In this document: positions 1,837 through 10,145 of the stretch, in pieces | How positions within the stretch are numbered: position 1 is the first letter of the stretch | Layout of the letters: every line of letters starts with the position of its first letter | Virus record (IMG/VR): IMGVR_UViG_2541047681_000005 | DNA from: a virus | Lineage: Duplodnaviria > Heunggongvirae > Uroviricota > Caudoviricetes | DNA: 12,615 nt | Direction: 5' to 3' (one strand) | Position numbers and translations under genes: made by a program | The notes under the pieces: generated by a model | Databases searched by the model: none | Seen by the model: only the letters and a program-made list of their open reading frames with translations | What the model was told of the DNA's origin: nothing

Positions 1837-2196
1837 ATGAATACTGGATATTCTCCCGAACAAGGGCGGGGCTTCGTTCGTCCTGAAAAACAGAATCTGC
1901 AAAATTTTGCCGAAATTATTCCGGTTATTTCCGGCCTTACTGGCGGGAGTGAAACCAATATTGTTAACGCCAGAGCGTTGCAGATGTTTGATGATAAAAA
2001 GGGAGTAAATTTAACTTACACCCCTGACGGCAATCAGAATATGAGCATTATCTCTGAGTCAGGTTTCTACAAACTAATAAAAACAAAAAGCGCCCCGTTG
2101 CCGGAGCGCCTTTGTGAACAATTAACCTACTGCGCAAAAAATGAATCTGAGCAGTGGGATTATATCAACCATGTGGAGAAGCGCCACAATTGCCGA
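1837..2196 (+). pseudogene. Possible decayed Bro-N/antirepressor-like remnant (N-terminal part of a 428-aa composite ORF)
   Basis: The first ~115 aa (DGNQNMSIISESGFYKLIKTKSAPLPERL) weakly resemble the Bro-N/KilA-N motif (ESGLYSLI...). The remainder of ORF 1837..3123 is Cys/Arg/Ser-rich and low in complexity, crosses a divergent promoter region and overlaps a better-supported minus-strand gene, so the long ORF is not one real protein. Confidence 0.25.
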
Positions 2197-2543
2197 ATAA
2201 CGGGCAAAACAAAGGCCACCCGCTACGGTGGCCCCTCGACACAAGCTACACGTTATCCCCAACGCATGAGCATTGCCAACAATGCCACATTTGCGGCTGG
2301 TGGGCAATGCAATCAGTCTGGTTCAGTTCGTTGCCATACCTGCAATGAGCGCTTTTCCCTGTACTCTTTAAGGAATTGCTCAAGGGCAAAAGCACATGGC
2401 GCGAATCTTTCTGATTCATGCTCTATCTTTCTGCGCCGTCTTTTCCGTGCCGGTGATAATGTTTTGGTCAATTCTTTATCGGTCATTGTGTTGTCCTGCA
2501 TAGCAATGCGCCGTAGTTACTCACACCACGGCGCTGGTGATGG

Positions 2544-2723
2544 TTACTCCTGCTCTTTGGCCTTGCGGCGCTGGCGGCGTTTGATTTCGCCGCGCATGGC
2601 TGCGTTTATAAACTGTCCCGTGCTTTCGCCTTCTTCTTTCACGTTCTCCATGCCTTCAATAATTTCATGGGCAATACGTGCAGTTACAGATTGTGATTTT
2701 GCATTCTTTGGACCCGTTGCCAT
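2544..2723 (-). CDS. Hypothetical small basic protein (59 aa), divergently transcribed from the left operon
   Basis: Internal ATG at 2721..2723 (complement) preceded by RBS GAGGGG with 6-nt spacing; product MATGPKNAKSQ...EIKRRQRRKAKEQE. Candidate -35/-10 (TTCAAA/TATATT) on the minus strand, overlapped by operator-like repeats. Family not recognised. Confidence 0.45.
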   Translation of the reverse strand: MATGPKNAKSQSVTARIAHEIIEGMENVKEEGESTGQFINAAMRGEIKRRQRRKAKEQE

Positions 2724-2744
2724 GTTTAACCCCTCATGTTTTTG

Positions 2745-2826
2745 GTGTAAGACAATATACACGAAAAAAAAATATTTTGAAGGGTTGACGTGTAAGACAC
2801 CATTGTTTTACATTGTGTCTTACACC
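2745..2826. promoter_or_regulatory. Divergent promoter region with three copies of an 11-bp operator-like motif GTGTAAGACAC
   Basis: Motif at 2745..2755 and 2790..2800 (direct) and 2815..2825 (inverted). Candidate + strand promoter -35 TTGACG (2785..2790) and -10 TTACAT (2808..2813), 17-bp spacer; one operator copy sits in the spacer and the inverted copy at the predicted +1. Candidate minus-strand promoter overlaps the first copy. Confidence 0.55.
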
Positions 2827-2922
2827 TTATTGATGAAAGGCACAGAAACGACGAAACCCCGCACTGTAGGAGCAGTAACGGGGCTTCTAACCACCAACGA
2901 TAGCAACAGTATCGAGGTAGCT

Positions 2923-3123
2923 ATGAGAAATCATACCACACACCCGAAAGGGCGGGACTCGCACAACCTGAATAAATACATCTGGCGTTTTATCGCCCTG
3001 AGCACGGCACAACCGCGCGTGATTACCATTGAGGCCACCAGCGAACAGGAAGCACGCCAGCAATCTCCGGCTGGCTGCGTGATGGTATTTGCTGCCCGTA
3101 TTCGTCAGGGGGTAGGCTTATGA
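2923..3123 (+). CDS. Small protein (66 aa), first gene of the left operon; possibly Icd-like, otherwise hypothetical
   Basis: ATG at 2923 with RBS GAGGT upstream; product MRNHTTHPKGRDSHNLNKYIWRFIALSTAQPRVITIEATSEQEARQQ.... Its stop overlaps the next ATG (ATGA). The Icd-like assignment is a recollection of P4-like prophage annotations and is unverified. Confidence 0.45.
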   Translation: MRNHTTHPKGRDSHNLNKYIWRFIALSTAQPRVITIEATSEQEARQQSPAGCVMVFAARIRQGVGL

Positions 3124-3795: not shown

Positions 3796-4095
3796 ATGAA
3801 ACTTAAATATTCTGGCTTAACTGCCAGTGGCAAAACTCGCACTAAATTCATGCGCGGTGATATTTACCGCGACCAGTACGGCGGCACGGTAATGATTAAG
3901 GGCGTGGAGGAACGGCGCGTAACCTACCGTCGTGAAGGCTACGAATATGATTGCGTGATGCCTGTTTATCAGTTCGATCGTGATTTTTCTCTGGTGCAGG
4001 CCGTACCGCGTAACGTGCCCACCAGCAGGGAGAAAGCACGCGCCAATATTCAGGAAATAAAAAAGATGCTTAACGTATTCAGGGGTAAGAAATGA
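3796..4095 (+). CDS. Hypothetical protein (99 aa)
   Basis: ATG at 3796 with RBS GGAGA 9 nt upstream; stop overlaps the primase start (ATGA). No family recognised. Confidence 0.55.
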   Translation: MKLKYSGLTASGKTRTKFMRGDIYRDQYGGTVMIKGVEERRVTYRREGYEYDCVMPVYQFDRDFSLVQAVPRNVPTSREKARANIQEIKKMLNVFRGKK

Positions 4096-5846
4096 AACTG
4101 GCACCGAACGTAAAAAAACAACCACGCGGAATAAAACACAAAGACACAGAGGTAATTATTTTCGCGGGTAGTGATGCGTGGTCACATGCAAAACAGTGGC
4201 AGGAGCAGGACGGCCCCGCATCCGGCGATAATGTGCCGCCTGTGTGGCTTGGGCCAAATCAGCTTGCCGAACTTGATGCGCTGAAAATTGTTCCGGATGG
4301 GAAAAAGCGCGTAAGGCTGTACCAGGCCGGAGAACTGGATTTAGTGGAGACCAAAAAGATTGGTCAGAAGCTGGCGGCGGCAGATATTCAGGACGCAAAT
4401 TTTTACCCTGATGGTATGCACGGTCAGAAGGTGGAGAACTGGCGCGAATATCTGGCCCGTGAGCGCCAGAATCTTTCTGATGGTCTGGTCATTGAGCTTC
4501 CGGTAAAGCAAAAGGCGCAACTTTCGCAGATGGCGGACAGTGAGCGCGCGCAGCTGCTTGCCGATCGCTTTGATGGCGTTTGCGTACATCCTGAAAGTGA
4601 AATCGTTCACGTATGGCGCGGCGGGGTATGGTGTCCGGTCAGCACAATGGAACTTAGCCGCGAAATGGTGGCGATCTATTCAGAGCACAGGGCCACTTTC
4701 AGCAAGCGCGTAATCAATAACGCCGTGGAAGCGTTAAAAGTTATTGCCGAACCAATGGGCGAGCCGTCCGGCGATTTGCTGCCGTTCGCCAATGGTGCGC
4801 TTGACCTGAAAACGGGGGAATTTTCCCCGCACACGCCGGAGAACTGGATCACCACGCACAACGGCATTGAGTACACGCCACCAGCACCAGGGGAGAACAT
4901 CCGCGATAACGCGCCAAACTTTCATAAATGGCTTAAGCACGCAGCCGGAAAAGACCCGCGCAAGATGATGCGTATATGTGCCGCGCTGTACATGATTATG
5001 GCGAACCGGTACGACTGGCAGATGTTTATTGAGGCCACCGGAGACGGCGGGAGCGGTAAAAGTACATTCACGCACATAGCCAGCCTTCTGGCAGGGAAAC
5101 AGAACACGGTAAGCGCTGAAATGACATCGCTTGATGATGCTGGTGGACGTGCGCAGGTTGTCGGGAGTCGTCTTATCGTCCTGGCTGACCAGCCGAAATA
5201 TACAGGCGAAGGAACGGGCATCAAGAAAATCACGGGCGGTGACCCCGTGGAAATTAACCCGAAATACGAAAAGCGTTTCACGGCTGTAATCAGGGCGGTG
5301 GTGCTGGCGACCAACAATAACCCGATGATATTCACCGAACGGGCCGGAGGTGTGGCACGTCGTCGCGTGATTTTCCGTTTCGACAATATCGTCAGTGAGG
5401 CCGAAAAAGACAGGGAGCTACCGGAAAAGATCGCGGCTGAAATCCCTGTCATTATCCGCCGATTGCTGGCGAACTTTACCGACCCTGAGAAGGCACGGGC
5501 TTTACTACTGGAACAGCGTGACGGTGATGAAGCACTGGCAATAAAGCAACAGACGGATCCGGTTATTGAGTTTTGCCAGTTCCTGAATTTTCTGGAGGAA
5601 GCGCGCGGCCTGATGATGGGGGGCGGTGGCGATTCAGTGAAGTACACGACCAGGAACAGCCTTTACCGCGTCTATCTGGCGTTTATGGCATACGCAGGCA
5701 GGAGCAAACCGCTAAACGTAAATGACTTTGGAAAGGCTATGAAGCCTGCCGCAAAAGTTTACGGACATGAATATATTACGCGGAAAGTTAAGGGGGTAAC
5801 GCAGACTAACGCAATAACAACAGACGAGTGCGACGCGTTTTTATAA
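4092..5846 (+). CDS. Replication primase/helicase, P4-alpha / D5-like family with P-loop NTPase domain
   Basis: 584-aa ORF with RBS AGGGG upstream; Walker A motif GDGGSGKST, followed by a hydrophobic strand (LIVLADQP) consistent with Walker B. Position after int-alpA and immediately before an iteron cluster matches satellite pri-rep genes. Confidence 0.9.
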   Translation: MKLAPNVKKQPRGIKHKDTEVIIFAGSDAWSHAKQWQEQDGPASGDNVPPVWLGPNQLAELDALKIVPDGKKRVRLYQAGELDLVETKKIGQKLAAADIQDANFYPDGMHGQKVENWREYLARERQNLSDGLVIELPVKQKAQLSQMADSERAQLLADRFDGVCVHPESEIVHVWRGGVWCPVSTMELSREMVAIYSEHRATFSKRVINNAVEALKVIAEPMGEPSGDLLPFANGALDLKTGEFSPHTPENWITTHNGIEYTPPAPGENIRDNAPNFHKWLKHAAGKDPRKMMRICAALYMIMANRYDWQMFIEATGDGGSGKSTFTHIASLLAGKQNTVSAEMTSLDDAGGRAQVVGSRLIVLADQPKYTGEGTGIKKITGGDPVEINPKYEKRFTAVIRAVVLATNNNPMIFTERAGGVARRRVIFRFDNIVSEAEKDRELPEKIAAEIPVIIRRLLANFTDPEKARALLLEQRDGDEALAIKQQTDPVIEFCQFLNFLEEARGLMMGGGGDSVKYTTRNSLYRVYLAFMAYAGRSKPLNVNDFGKAMKPAAKVYGHEYITRKVKGVTQTNAITTDECDAFL

Positions 5847-5860
5847 TTTTTTGTAATTGC

Positions 5861-6086
5861 TGTCTACCCTGTCTACCTGAGTAAAGAAAAATACATTTAA
5901 TTCAGTGCATTAAGTTAGGTAGACAGCCTTTTTTTACTGTCTACCCACTATCTACCCTCTCTACCTGATTTTACCTGAATCAGACAGGGAGGTAGACACG
6001 GGGTAGATAGTGGATAAAAGCACTCTACCCCGCTGAAAGCCGCGCCATTACTGGCATGAGGGCCACTAAGGTAGATAAGGTAGACA
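5861..6086. repeat. Iteron cluster, putative replication origin
   Basis: About 11 copies of the core TCTACC / GGTAGA in both orientations (TGTCTACC at 5861, 5870, 5938; ATCTACCC 5950; CTCTACC 5959 and 6023; GGTAGACA 5918, 5991, 6079; GGTAGATA 6002, 6070), with an AT-rich stretch at 5880..5915. Directly downstream of the primase stop. Confidence 0.7.
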
Positions 6087-6134
6087 AGGGGAGGCACAAC
6101 TCAAAACTTTTTAAACGAGGGGGTAAAAATAAAT

Positions 6135-6413
6135 ATGCACACTTCAGGGAAATTTAATAAATCACTCAAAAAACGCAGAGACAGAACAGAACCGAAATAT
6201 CGCGCGTTAGACATGACAGAGCACGCTTTAAAGGTGGCAATCAGAACGATAGACCGCCACGCGGGGGAAGGATACGCGAAAGCACATCCCGAACTGATAA
6301 GCGCATTCATGACCACGACGGCGGCAAATTTTGCCACGCTGACAGAGCGGGAGATTGCCGAAGCGGAACAGGTAACAACCATCAACGTTAAAACCGGAGA
6401 GGTGGAATCATGA
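6135..6413 (+). CDS. Hypothetical protein (92 aa)
   Basis: ATG at 6135 with strong RBS GAGGGGG; stop overlaps the next start (ATGA). No family recognised. Confidence 0.55.
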   Translation: MHTSGKFNKSLKKRRDRTEPKYRALDMTEHALKVAIRTIDRHAGEGYAKAHPELISAFMTTTAANFATLTEREIAEAEQVTTINVKTGEVES

Positions 6414-6832
6414 CAGCACAGATAGCAGCTTACGGGCGGCTGGTGGACGACCCGCAGGTAAAACAGACCAGCAAGGGCACACCGATGACGCTGGCGCGTA
6501 TGGCGGTCCCCCTTCCGTGCAGCCAGGCAGATGACGGAACGGCGACGATGTGGTTATCCGTCCTGGCATTTGGCAGACAGGCCGAAGCACTGGAAAGGCA
6601 CCGCAAGGGTGAACTCCTGAGCGTGGCGGGTAACATGCAGATCAGCCAGTGGACTGGGCAGAACGGAGAAACGCGGCAGGGCTGGCAGGTTATCGCAGAC
6701 AGTGTAATCAGTGCGCGAACGGCGCGACTGGGCGGCAAAAAAGGTCAACAGGGCCAGGCTACTGACGCGCTGAACAGGGCAAAACAACAGGCGGGGAATG
6801 ATGATCCGTACGGGGATAACATACCGTTTTAA
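6410..6832 (+). CDS. SSB-like single-stranded DNA-binding protein (OB fold with SSB-type C-terminal tail)
   Basis: 140-aa ORF with RBS GGAGAGGTGG. N-terminal region aligns by eye with the E. coli SSB OB fold (GRLVDDPQV vs GNLGQDPEV; WLSVLAFGRQAEALERHRKGELLSV vs [25 protein letters not shown]). Gly/Gln-rich linker and C-terminal DDPYGDNIPF resemble the SSB DDDIPF tail. Confidence 0.65.
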   Translation: MTAQIAAYGRLVDDPQVKQTSKGTPMTLARMAVPLPCSQADDGTATMWLSVLAFGRQAEALERHRKGELLSVAGNMQISQWTGQNGETRQGWQVIADSVISARTARLGGKKGQQGQATDALNRAKQQAGNDDPYGDNIPF

Positions 6833-6848
6833 GCGACGAGAGACAGAA

Positions 6849-6870
6849 GCCGGAGCAATCCGGCTTTTTT
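6849..6870 (+). terminator. Rho-independent terminator after the SSB-like gene
   Basis: Hairpin GCCGGA-GCAA-TCCGGC followed by six T (6865..6870). Confidence 0.7.
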
Positions 6871-6908
6871 ACGGGTCCTCCTGGCGGGGTGGGCCTGAAC
6901 ACGGGGCG
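6871..6908 (+). other. Degenerate cos-like sequence (pseudo-cos)
   Basis: ACGGGTCCTCCTGGCGGGGTGGGCCTGAACACGGGGCGGGAAGCGCGG resembles the cosQ/cosN segment at 9313..9360 (ACGGGTCCTTTCCGG...ACGGGGCGGCGACCTCGCGG), and is preceded by the same terminator hairpin, but lacks the intact GGGCGGCGACCT core. Confidence 0.45.
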
Positions 6909-7044
6909 GGAAGCGCGGAAAAAAGCGCATTTTTGTGATTTTATCGTCATCATCATCATGAGCGTAATTTATTGTTTTTAATTGTTTTGATGCAAAAAAG
7001 ATGATGGTTGTGGTTAATTTTCGTTCGACATCTTTGCAGGCAGA

Positions 7045-7087
7045 TAAAAAAGCCCGATAAGGTCAGAGGTGGCTTATCGGGCTTTTG
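7045..7087. terminator. Bidirectional hairpin terminator candidate
   Basis: 11-bp perfect stem AGCCCGATAAG / CTTATCGGGCT with 11-nt loop, A-run upstream and T-run downstream. Confidence 0.5.
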
Positions 7088-7163
7088 CATATGAGGCTTT
7101 TTGGTGCACTGACACACATGAGCGGGATCATCATTTCATAATTTGCAACACAACTCAATATCA

Positions 7164-7212
7164 TTGTACAAAACGCAATCCTGATTATAATCAGAGCTGG
7201 ATGAACATCCAG
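7164..7212 (+). promoter_or_regulatory. Candidate promoter of the capsid operon with overlapping palindromic operators
   Basis: -35 TTGTAC (7164..7169), 16-bp spacer, -10 TATAAT (7186..7191). The -10 lies inside a perfect 14-bp palindrome CTGATTATAATCAG (7181..7194), followed by inverted repeat CTGGATG-AA-CATCCAG (7197..7212). Confidence 0.5.
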
Positions 7213-7247
7213 TTATGATTTTTTAAGTCGAAGAGGAATTTCTTACT

Positions 7248-7454
7248 ATGGCTGAAGAGAAAAAAGGCGGTGTTTCGGTGTACATAAGCCCCGAAATCGT
7301 GGAGGTGCTCAAGCAGCGCCACAAAAAAAACTATGAGGCTGGCGTGGCGGCTGGACTGGATCCGCTGATGACGCCGGAGCCGTCGATAGGTTCACTTGTA
7401 CGCTCTTATTTACTTGCGGCGCTTGGGATGCATAAAAATTATGGGGGTGAATAA
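7248..7454 (+). CDS. Hypothetical protein (68 aa), translationally coupled to the major capsid gene
   Basis: ATG at 7248 with RBS AGAGGA; its stop TAA overlaps the capsid ATG (TAATG). No family recognised. Confidence 0.55.
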   Translation: MAEEKKGGVSVYISPEIVEVLKQRHKKNYEAGVAAGLDPLMTPEPSIGSLVRSYLLAALGMHKNYGGE

Positions 7455-8509
7455 TGGCAGGCAAAGCAACGGCACTTAACACTAACCAGCTTTTCATGTA
7501 CCTGAATCGCGGGGATATTGCGGATTTTAAATTCAGCCCTCTGTTTACTACGCTGTTTTTCCCGAACGTGGCGACATTCAGCACGCAAAACATCATGCTG
7601 GATACCCTGGACATTGAAGAAGTCACCATGTCGGCGTTTTGTTCGCCTATGGTGGGTAGCCAGGTTCAGCGCGATAAAGGGTACGAAACCAGCACGATTA
7701 AACCTGGCTACATGAAGCCAAAGCACGAAATCGATCCAACGAAAACCATCATGCGCATGGCTGGAGAAGATCCGGCACAGCTTAACGACCCTACCTATCG
7801 CCGTATGCGCCTGATTACTGGCAATATGCGCCGCCAGATAAACGCCATAAAAGCGCGCGTGGAATGGCTGGCGGTAAATGCGGTAACGACCGGAAAAAAC
7901 ATCATTGAGGGCGAAGGCATAGAGCGCTATGAAATCGACTGGAAGATACCGGAAAAAAACATCATAGAGCAGGCCGACGGGAAAAAATGGTCAGAGCAGG
8001 ACAAAGAAACCCACGATCCAATCTATGATATCGAACTATACGCCGATCAGGCTGGTTGCCCCGCAAACGTCATGATTATGGGCGCTGAGGTATGGCGAAC
8101 GTTACGCAGCTTTAAAAAATTCCGTGAGCTGTACGATCTTTCCCGTGGTTCAGAATCCGCCGCCGAACTGGCCTGTAAAAACCTGGGCGAAGTGGTGAGC
8201 TTTAAAGGCTATCTTGGTGATCTGGCCCTTATCGTCTATTCCGGCAAATACACTGACAGCGATGGTACCGAAAAATATTTCCTTGAGCCTGATTTGCTGG
8301 TCCTGGGCAACACCAACAATAAAGGGCTGGTGGCCTATGGTGCGATAATGGATCAGGAAGCGGTAAGAACGGGCGCAACACAAAACATGTTTTACCCGAA
8401 AAACTGGATTGAGGACGGCGATCCGGCGATTGAGTACGTGCAGACACACAGTGCACCGCAGCCGGTACCGGCAGATATTCGCAAATTTGTTACCGTCAAA
8501 ATTGGTTAA
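7454..8509 (+). CDS. Major capsid protein, lambda gpE family
   Basis: 351-aa product aligns by eye along its length with lambda gpE (341 aa): [163 protein letters not shown] upstream. Confidence 0.9.
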   Translation: [351 protein letters not shown]

Positions 8510-8521
8510 CGGGGGGATTCT

Positions 8522-8857
8522 ATGGACACTCCATACATTGAGTTATTTGCAGGCAGTCAGCAGGTCGCCACGACGCTGGTACATTTTGCCGCTGATGCTG
8601 GCGTTATTCAGGAATTTACCCCGCTGATGCTGGCAGACAATGGCGAGTTTAAGCCGTGGGATGGTCAGGAATCTGGCAAGGCTGTTTATCTGACCTCGTA
8701 CCCTGTGGACACGTCAAAGCAGAAATCAGCACAGTGTTACAAGACGGGGATTTTCAATATTGCCGCCGTTAACTGGCCTGAGAGCGTCGACACCGATGCG
8801 AAAAAATGCGCCGCCTTTGCGGGTTCTGGCGTATCCGTTCAGCCGCTGGCCCGATAA
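8522..8857 (+). CDS. Head decoration protein, lambda gpD family
   Basis: 111-aa product (lambda gpD is 110 aa) with TPLMLADNGEFKPWDG vs TPLMLDTSSRKLVAWDG and YKTGIFNIAAVNWPESVDTDAKKCAAFAGSGVSVQ vs [44 protein letters not shown] upstream. Order is capsid then decoration, the reverse of lambda (D then E). Confidence 0.85.
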   Translation: MDTPYIELFAGSQQVATTLVHFAADAGVIQEFTPLMLADNGEFKPWDGQESGKAVYLTSYPVDTSKQKSAQCYKTGIFNIAAVNWPESVDTDAKKCAAFAGSGVSVQPLAR

Positions 8858-8869
8858 GCAGGGGGAACG

Positions 8870-9283
8870 ATGGCAACGAATGAAAGCGTCATGACGCTAC
8901 CGCTGGCGAGTAAATTTAAAGCCGAAGCGCGGGCAATGGCTGACAGAGGTTTATCAACCTACGAGGCCGTATATCAACTCAACAAACTGGAAGAGCAGGA
9001 CAAGCCGCGCGCTGATGCGATTATGGCGCTTCATGAACATAACGACTATCAGCCGCTGTTACGTGCAATGGCAAACGTGCCATGTATTAGCGTCGATAAT
9101 GCTCGTGAAATCCTGAACATGACCATAGAGCAGGAGCGCCCAAAGGTTGCGCCGGAGCTTACCGCAGCCTTTGAAAACTTTATGGACATGCACAGCCCGA
9201 AAGCCGTATCACCCGGCATGGCATACGACGGCAGAAACCAGGGCGATGAAGGCGACGTCGATCGCATACTGAAAACCATCTGA
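8870..9283 (+). CDS. Hypothetical protein (137 aa), last gene before cos
   Basis: ATG at 8870 with RBS AGGGGGA; followed by a strong terminator. No clear similarity to lambda FI or other remembered head proteins. Confidence 0.6.
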   Translation: MATNESVMTLPLASKFKAEARAMADRGLSTYEAVYQLNKLEEQDKPRADAIMALHEHNDYQPLLRAMANVPCISVDNAREILNMTIEQERPKVAPELTAAFENFMDMHSPKAVSPGMAYDGRNQGDEGDVDRILKTI

Positions 9284-9312: not shown

Positions 9313-9445
9313 ACGGGTCCTTTCCGGCATATGGACCCGTTACGGGGCGGCGACCTCGCGGGTTTTCGCTATTTATGACGTTTTTCCGTGAAGGTGACAC
9401 CACCACCACTTGATTAATATTTAACCATGCGGTTAAGGTAACATT
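9313..9445 (+). other. Lambda-type cos site (cosQ-like, cosN, short cosB) upstream of the TerS-like gene
   Basis: TACGGGTCCTTTCCGG...GTTACG|GGGCGGCGACCTCGCGGGTTTTCGCTATTTATGA closely matches the lambda cohesive-end region as remembered. Predicted 12-nt cohesive end GGGCGGCGACCT at 9345..9356. One R-site-like element (CGTTTTTCCGTG, about 9381..9392) and an AT-rich stretch follow. Confidence 0.75.
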
Positions 9446-9886
9446 ATGATTGATAAAGCTTGTTTTGTAAGTCAGCAGGAAATAGCTGAACATTTCAAGG
9501 TTAACAGAACCACTATTCGCGCATGGACCAAACAGGGGATGCCGTATCTTAATGCGGATCGCGGAAAGTCTGGCGGTTATCACATCGGGCATACATTGCT
9601 TTGGTCTTCAGGTAAAAGCCGTCTTGAGGCCATCAGATATCACGTAGAAACCAGTGCGCTGGAAAAAATTATGTTTGCCAGGCTGCTTTCATCTGAGCGT
9701 GACGAGTACTCCAGTGAAGAAACAGAACATCGATTTGATGAAGGTTTGCAGATTTACGGCTATTCACCGGAAGATGTGAGCAAGGCACGAAATAAAATGG
9801 CTGGCTTTCTGGCTGGGTGGCGTCATGCCGTAAGCGTTCGCCGTGCCAGCATGGAACAATCAGTCGTTACAGAACAGCAAAGTTAA
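9446..9886 (+). CDS. Small terminase-like protein, lambda Nu1-type DNA-binding N-terminus with divergent C-terminus (TerS/Rpp-like)
   Basis: 146-aa ORF about 90 bp downstream of cosN, as Nu1 is in lambda. N-terminus QQEIAEHFKVNRTTIRAWTKQGMPYL aligns with Nu1 KKQLADIFGASIRTIQNWQEQGMPVL (winged HTH). Shorter than Nu1 (181 aa) and the C-terminal region does not resemble Nu1's. Confidence 0.7.
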   Translation: MIDKACFVSQQEIAEHFKVNRTTIRAWTKQGMPYLNADRGKSGGYHIGHTLLWSSGKSRLEAIRYHVETSALEKIMFARLLSSERDEYSSEETEHRFDEGLQIYGYSPEDVSKARNKMAGFLAGWRHAVSVRRASMEQSVVTEQQS

Positions 9887-10090: not shown

Positions 10091-10145
10091 GCGAAAAACC
10101 GCGAGGTCGCCGCCCCGTAACGGGCCATAATTCCAGGAAGGACCC
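10091..10145 (-). other. Second cos-like sequence in inverted orientation (cosQ/cosN-like, no recognisable cosB)
   Basis: Reverse complement of 10091..10145 reads CGGGTCCTTCCTGGAATTATGGCCCGTTACGGGGCGGCGACCTCGCGGTTTTTCGCTATTTATGA, about 85% identical to cos at 9313..9380 including an intact GGGCGGCGACCT. No R-site-like element or TerS gene follows it on the minus strand. Confidence 0.6.

Follow-up and report, generated by a model that had tools for sequence, protein, structure and literature searches.

A single-stranded DNA-binding protein with a host-type C-terminal tip in the replication module of EcCICFT073-type phage satellites

Why should a small phage satellite carry a gene of its own for a single-stranded DNA-binding protein (SSB)? 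The question is raised by a stretch of 12,615 nt, IMG/VR record IMGVR_UViG_2541047681_000005, which in its entirety we call the window and whose positions serve as coordinates throughout. A preliminary description had pointed to an SSB-like gene with a C-terminal DNIPF tail, thought it notable in a small satellite, proposed that it might support satellite replication or compete with host or helper SSB, and presented it as coupled to an uncharacterised upstream open reading frame (ORF) of 92 codons, here orf92. The description was right as to the kind of element: the window corresponds to the model Gram-negative phage-inducible chromosomal island (PICI) EcCICFT073, of which it is an allele and whose position beside phoQ it shares. 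The product of the SSB-like gene is, with near certainty, a genuine bacterial-type SSB, and we consider it likely that it serves the PICI replication module as an accessory SSB, working with host partners through its C-terminal tip.

The gene, ssb, occupies positions 6410-6832 of the + strand, with its ATG at 6410, and encodes 140 aa. Its product matches Pfam family PF00436 over residues 5-99 (E 4.9e-15; 55.9 bits against a cut-off of 26) and the PHROG SSB family phrog_44 (3.3e-37), and 26 solved SSBs match it by sequence. An AlphaFold model based on 49 homologues places an oligonucleotide/oligosaccharide-binding (OB) fold in residues 1-103 (6410-6718; predicted local distance difference test score, pLDDT, 80-92), with strands at residues 2-11, 16-19, 25-36, 44-54, 69-82 and 88-101 and a helix at 55-62, that is, the five-stranded barrel with helix typical of this single-stranded DNA (ssDNA)-binding domain. 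Residues 104-140 are disordered (pLDDT below 50) and comprise a short linker, residues 104-132 (6719-6805), and the C-terminal tip PYGDNIPF, encoded together with the stop codon by 6806-6832. The 50 best Foldseek matches of the model in the PDB are all bacterial or mitochondrial SSBs, with E of about 1e-8. The SSB-like gene proposed earlier is thus supported by family profile, fold and structural neighbours alike, and the OB fold that had been suggested as its check is confidently predicted.

Comparison with the chromosomal SSB of E. coli (PF00436; PDB 1EQQ/1EYG) shows what has been kept. Besides the OB fold and a disordered linker, the two proteins have in common equivalents of W54, F60, W88 and G15: W48, F54 and W81 of the satellite protein align with the three E. 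coli aromatics and are invariant in its clade. Three of the four aromatics of E. coli SSB that stack on ssDNA (W40, W54, F60 and W88) are therefore present; the fourth, W40, has no counterpart, its loop being shorter and without an aromatic. Overall identity is only 27%, and the linker measures about 30 aa as against about 60 aa in E. coli; it exists in two variants among the homologues. The E. coli tip, F-D-D-D-I-P-F, parallels the PICI pattern [FY]-x-D-x-I-P-F, the satellite protein itself ending in ...NDDPYGDNIPF. Among the 120 homologues listed, a few truncated or partial sequences excepted, the tail conforms to [PQ]-[YFW]-x-D-x-I-P-F, in forms that include PYGDNIPF, PYGDGIPF, PYGDDIPF and PYEDEIPF; D136 and F140 are invariant in the homologue alignment, and I138 and P139 conserved to at least 90%. 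Conservation of the tail, asserted from a single sequence in the preliminary description, is in this way borne out across the family. The gene is under purifying selection, the ratio of non-synonymous to synonymous substitution rates (dN/dS) being 0.21 over 54 distinct alleles.

The surroundings of the gene are those of the prototype. EcCICFT073, described with its capsid gene c1499 and decoration gene c1500 and shown to undergo helper-dependent induction, packaging and transfer (PMC6092414), lies at the same site beside phoQ, and the RefSeq annotation of CFT073 there runs: DNA primase family protein (the pri-rep orthologue), 85-aa hypothetical protein, 136-aa "single-stranded DNA-binding protein", PerC, capsid. 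The two elements share the order pri-rep, ori, small ORF, ssb, with the 4-nt overlap of the last two. The 136-aa SSB of EcCICFT073 (C_RS06995, WP_000126698.1) is 72% identical to that of the window and has a tip of the same type (...PYGDDIPF) but the other linker variant; the 85-aa product of its small upstream ORF is likewise 72% identical to that of orf92. The window has the general layout of an EcCICFT073-type PICI, with unidirectional int, alpA, pri-rep, ori and late genes within about 11 kb and with neither lysis nor tail genes; phoQ follows directly on the right, on the opposite strand, and the left junction falls outside the window.

Directly 5' of the origin and the ssb cassette stands pri-rep (4092-5846, +), whose 584-aa product is a primase-helicase with D5_N (1.5e-15), DUF5906 (5.1e-10) and Pox_D5 (7.8e-5) matches in Pfam and a match of 8e-174 to the DNA primase family phrog_864. 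Between it and orf92, at 5861-6086, is a replication origin made up of nine GGTAGAYA iterons, in both orientations, that flank A+T-rich stretches. All nine exact matches to GGTAGAYA in the window fall within this interval, where the chance expectation is 0.29 and none of 200 shuffles reached nine; they lie 50-270 bp upstream of the cassette. Identity of this region to the stretch immediately 3' of pri-rep in EcCICFT073 is 96-98%, and there the region 3' of rep has been shown experimentally to act as an origin (PMC6092414). A role in satellite replication, one of the two suggestions made at the outset, fits the way in which ssb is consistently placed just behind the replicase gene and iteron origin.

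Transcription of ssb is probably as part of an early unit. A Shine-Dalgarno-like GAGGGGG (6117-6123, +), conserved in EcCICFT073 and in the capsid-forming PICI locus discussed below, precedes the ATG of orf92 by 11 nt, and ssb has a Shine-Dalgarno region, GGAGAGGTGG, within the 3' end of orf92 (6396-6405, +). No sigma-70 promoter was found on the + strand between pri-rep and orf92; the sole sigma-70-like match on that strand in the interval 5700-7500 lies at 7135-7164, upstream of the late genes. Beyond ssb, a hairpin followed by a U tract (6845-6871, +) folds at -22.8 kcal/mol (z = -2.9), with a stem, AGAAGCCGGA/UCCGGCUUUU, in which five G-C pairs are followed by A-U and G-U pairs that reach into the U tract; because the stem takes up part of the T run, a simple terminator scan missed it. 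It probably acts as an intrinsic terminator and marks the end of the early/replication transcription unit, which runs int, alpA, several small ORFs, DUF4222, pri-rep, iteron origin, orf92, ssb, terminator. By this arrangement ssb would be the last gene of the replication module. In CFT073, in the capsid-forming PICI locus and in several others, the gene directly 3' of ssb encodes a perC-family regulator; when 6833-7247 of the window was set against L134 (10950-11470) and L002 (7424-7696), neither perC nor a remnant of it was found, and the near-identical locus L001 likewise lacks it.

The association of ssb with replication genes extends far beyond this allele. A scan of species-representative genomes yielded 39 loci, nearly all from Enterobacterales genera; ssb was detected in 38, and in nearly all of them a large replicase ORF ends 170-760 bp before it. 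Most loci also have, further upstream and in the same orientation, an integrase gene and an alpA-like gene. The replicases that precede this ssb clade are of at least four architectures: the D5_N-DUF5906 type of the window, Zn-ribbon-Toprim-DUF927, Zn-ribbon-Toprim-DUF5906 and, in E. coli, a RepA-family helicase and a P4-family primase. It is this linkage of ssb to a satellite replicase and origin, maintained across replicase types, that chiefly argues for a function in replication. One locus of the scan, L012 (CACSKA010000004.1), is labelled Chryseobacterium sp. and contains an Enterobacter-like int...ssb locus with an SSB tail common to the Buttiauxella, Atlantibacter and Enterobacter intestinihominis loci, which suggests that the assembly is mislabelled or contaminated.

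The same breadth bears on a deflationary account, in which ssb is a passenger with no current role that is kept through linkage to the origin. Damaged copies do exist, as partial proteins (truncated or frameshifted) among the homologues and as several tail-less variants in the species-representative loci (L036-L038 included), and the gene is dispensable for replication of a plasmid carrying pri and ori; however, the low dN/dS, the invariance of the ssDNA-binding aromatics and tip, and the retention of ssb behind all these replicase types and in many Enterobacterales genera make such inertness extremely improbable.

In E. coli the gene is common: of 5426 complete genomes, 1814 contain SSB-like DNA, which occurs at 2365 places in all and up to six times in one genome. 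RefSeq already names the SSB in loci near-identical to the window, and Mageeney et al. 2023 (PMC10111431) list SSB in the replication category of Gram-negative PICIs, which lends independent support to its placement in the replication module. A PICI ssb is thus already known, being annotated, present in the prototype PICI, and ordinary. To call the gene notable was accordingly correct in so far as it identified an SSB in a satellite, and not as the announcement of something new.

How such an SSB might work can be sketched from the parts. The helper phage would switch on the AlpA-driven operon; Pri-Rep would melt the iteron origin just upstream of the cassette; the OB domain of the satellite SSB would coat the single strands so exposed; and its D-x-I-P-F tip would dock onto the host proteins that read SSB tails, such as the chi subunit of the clamp loader, PriA, and enzymes of the RecQ/ExoI class. 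The satellite would in this manner top up the cell's supply of SSB at a time when satellite and helper are both replicating heavily. Unlike the chromosomal gene of E. coli, the PICI ssb is on a mobile element and presumably expressed on induction only.

Several observations weigh against this account. The PICI tip, PYGDNIPF, is less acidic than the E. coli tip DFDDDIPF; His55 of the E. coli tetramer interface is replaced by Leu49, and the loop that bears Trp40 is the one that has been shortened. A plasmid carrying only pri-rep and ori replicates in E. coli DH5alpha (PMC6092414), and papers on the SaPIs of staphylococci as well as on EcCICFT073 describe replication modules as made up of pri, rep and ori, with no SSB. 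Divergence of SSB does not follow that of Pri (Spearman rho -0.05 over 24 complete loci), and among 110 pairs of loci whose Pri proteins are more than 98% identical there are 47 in which the SSBs are less than 80% identical. No experimental study of this SSB was found in the searchable literature. Replication of the pri-rep/ori plasmid implies that host SSB is enough for basic replication, and hence that the PICI protein is accessory rather than essential. Co-evolution of SSB with Pri is rejected: the SSB alleles are shuffled independently of Pri and give no sign of a specific SSB-replicase interface, a behaviour that fits a generic SSB using host partners and not one matched to its own replicase. 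Taking these points together with the conserved linkage, we hold a role in replication to be fairly likely.

The clade to which the protein belongs raises other possibilities. Phage SSBs of phrog_44, for example that of Pseudomonas phage F116, match the same family profile and likewise occur in the replication modules of mobile elements, but among 50,697 phage records no close relative was found, the best match being no more than 32% identical. The closest plasmid matches that we inspected were in satellite-like contexts. One of these contexts is L002 (CP088587.1), a circular record of 32.5 kb, typed as a non-mobilizable plasmid, that contains a complete capsid-forming PICI (int, alpA, pri, orf92, ssb, perC, HK97 capsid, protease, portal, connectors, HNH, TerS and TerL), in which the pri, ori, orf92, ssb block precedes a full HK97-type head module. 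To judge from these matches, the clade looks confined to satellites. Among mobile elements an additional SSB is familiar from conjugative plasmids: the ssb in the leading region of F-type plasmids specifies an extra SSB with a host-type C-terminal tip, acts on the transferred single strands and is generally regarded as supplementing host SSB. The context there differs from that of the PICI gene, which is 3' of a satellite replicase and origin.

Satellite specificity is what would be expected if the protein served interference, either by competing with host SSB for ssDNA or by using its IPF tip as a decoy that titrates host SSB-interacting proteins; in both cases it would slow replication or recombination of a lambda-like helper, to the benefit of the satellite. 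Such a role could also explain why the tip is conserved in a protein otherwise so distant from the host SSB, and EcCICFT073 does interfere strongly with lambda (PMC6092414). However, the known interference of EcCICFT073-type PICIs is already accounted for by Rpp, which redirects the helper small terminase (PMC6739421). Moreover, ssb sits within the replication module and not among the late or interference genes, and the sequence bears no dominant-negative mark, OB residues and tip being both intact; we consider interference by the SSB unlikely. As to the competition with host or helper SSB suggested at the outset, the evidence speaks neither for it nor against it.

Phage SSBs or ssDNA provoke a response from several defence systems, and satellites carry genes involved in phage-host conflict. 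Confinement of the clade to satellites might therefore reflect protection, the satellite SSB shielding ssDNA intermediates from nucleases, or masking or replacing an SSB that host defences sense. Neither the SSB nor the product of orf92 matched any PADLOC defence model at E up to 0.01, though, nor did we find support for an anti-defence role of a PICI SSB in the literature, and the gene keeps a fixed position by the origin instead of lying in a variable accessory hotspot; protection of this kind is very unlikely. Altogether the rival explanations find little positive support, and an accessory SSB of the replication module is the reading that we retain.

What, then, of the ORF to which ssb appears coupled? 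orf92 (6135-6413, +) ends with a TGA at 6411-6413 that overlaps the ssb start codon at 6410 as ATGA (...GAA TCA TGA), so the ORF list and the sequence both confirm the overlap originally noted. The label "uncharacterised" also stands: the sole family matched is phrog_1231 (E 2.9e-51, residues 12-92), to which no function has been assigned and which lacks a counterpart in Pfam, NCBIfam and PDB, and searches of Pfam, PADLOC, NCBIfam, PDB sequences and BFVD structures returned nothing for the protein itself. It has 166 close homologues, and a profile search gathered 672 representative clusters that share the motif ID..FG.GYAK.HPELIAAFM.TAA.DF; each of 50 diverse relatives tested matches phrog_1231. 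The N-terminus is basic and variable, annotated starts differing among records, and is followed by the conserved core ALDxTEHxLKVAIxxIDRxxGEGYAKAHPELISAFMTTAAANFATLTEREIAEAEQVTTINVK. AlphaFold models helices at residues 20-43 and 52-79, from which we propose, with moderate confidence, that the core is a helical hairpin; the mean pLDDT of 61 means that fold matches would be unreliable. Weak hits, among them COG5_N and HrpE/YscL, look like helical-hairpin noise, and membership of a family known from these databases is rejected. orf92 is under purifying selection (dN/dS 0.40).

An antisense ORF of 94 codons (6101-6385, -) covers much of orf92 and is open in 56 of 56 distinct close variants. We do not regard it as a real gene, since its frame is closed in distant relatives while conservation of the sense protein extends to relatives of 25-35% identity. 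Its own dN/dS, 0.28, carries no information, for the wobble positions of the two frames coincide; the shared third codon positions probably also explain why the antisense ORF stays open in close variants.

The overlap invites the idea of a dedicated two-protein unit, in which the orf92 product would be a loader, chaperone or specific regulator of the SSB and ATGA would fix the proportion of the two. Within E. coli there is a good deal to suggest it. In 76 of 80 viral-contig loci with orf92, ssb is downstream, and in 66 of these 76 the overlap is 4 nt; in the complete E. coli genomes orf92-like DNA (1617 genomes, 2153 places) is nearly as frequent as ssb, both being commoner than the replicase type of the window (625 places), and the pair also follows the RepA-family helicase. 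orf92 is thus largely tied to ssb within this species.

Outside E. coli, however, the same SSB clade is found without orf92. In other genera its slot is empty, with about 180 nt from replicase to ssb, or holds unrelated ORFs, several of which overlap the ssb start by 4 nt: Klebsiella, Buttiauxella and Rahnella loci (L003, 6624-7004; L015; L034) have there a conserved ORF of 126-142 aa, unrelated to orf92, with just such an overlap. Sphingomonadales loci have yet another family, of 98-117 aa, in the slot before ssb. Nor do relatives of orf92 keep to the company of an SSB. When five more distant members of phrog_1231 were looked up, not one had an SSB encoded next to it. Two were among replication genes, one between AlpA and a DUF927 replicase and the other following a PriCT/DUF5906 replicase; one that is closer to orf92 (49% identity) was 3.3 kb downstream of an SSB gene that has a different ORF upstream; and of the remaining two, one was in the tail region of a phage and one preceded an integrase. 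Even among the 76 loci, nine (L075-L079, L088-L090 and L105) have an extra ORF of 101-104 aa (MSEPKFGEKFYKHNGRITILQISAATPGWWVE...) between orf92 and ssb; that ORF is disrupted in L090. Finally, the divergences of the two proteins are uncorrelated (rho 0.08), and between the window and the capsid-forming PICI of L002 the orf92 products are 100% identical and the SSBs only 72%, which points to recombination inside the cassette.

The empty or substituted slots and the relatives away from SSB rule out orf92 as a conserved SSB partner as a general rule, and a dedicated pairing in the present element is improbable. Since the slot varies and distant relatives occur without SSB, the ATGA overlap reflects a compact operon and linkage by descent. 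The coupling announced in the preliminary description therefore survives as adjacency and not as partnership: orf92, probably co-transcribed with ssb, encodes a small, predicted helical protein in a variable slot between origin and ssb, and its family, phrog_1231, is a wide grouping of small helical proteins met with repeatedly in the early regions of mobile elements under AlpA control. A more elaborate scheme, in which the satellite SSB, by virtue of its host-like tip, divergent OB core and shortened linker, would capture host SSB partners for the satellite or deny them to the helper, with the phrog_1231 protein as a modulator in E. coli, strikes us as equally doubtful.

The rest of the window is in keeping with its assignment. 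Upstream of pri-rep, domain and profile matches identify a tyrosine integrase (1-1230, +), an AlpA-like helix-turn-helix (HTH) protein (1596-1784, +) and a DUF4222 protein (3796-4095, +). The interval 1837-3123, a P4-like "Bro/immunity" zone, contains an ORF of 428 codons of odd composition that is probably not a real gene; the near-identical locus L001 has at this place Icd-like fragments or pseudogenes and an opposite-strand YlcI/YnfO gene in RefSeq. No C4 RNA, isrK RNA, P4-type immunity RNA or other Rfam family scored above its gathering threshold in the window, and no tRNA was found there.

Downstream are genes for a lambda-type major capsid protein E (7454-8509, +), a decoration protein D (8522-8857, +), a scaffold-like protein (8870-9283, +) and a 146-aa HTH protein (9446-9886, +) that is weakly similar to small terminase subunits (TerS; phrog_57, 4.2e-8) and occupies the position of the EcCICFT073 packaging-redirection protein Rpp, to which we liken it by position. 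Two exact copies of the lambda cosN 12-mer GGGCGGCGACCT, at 9345-9356 (+) and 10104-10115 (-), flank this TerS/Rpp-like gene in opposite orientations, in agreement with the report of two cos sites in EcCICFT073.

The outcome is a clarification: the gene that raised the question is an ordinary annotated SSB of the replication module found in EcCICFT073-type and capsid-forming PICIs, and not a new feature. A satellite-specific SSB with a host-type docking tip is present, in one to six copies, in about one third of E. coli genomes. It may boost satellite replication, affect the helper phage, or disturb the interaction network of the host's own SSB.

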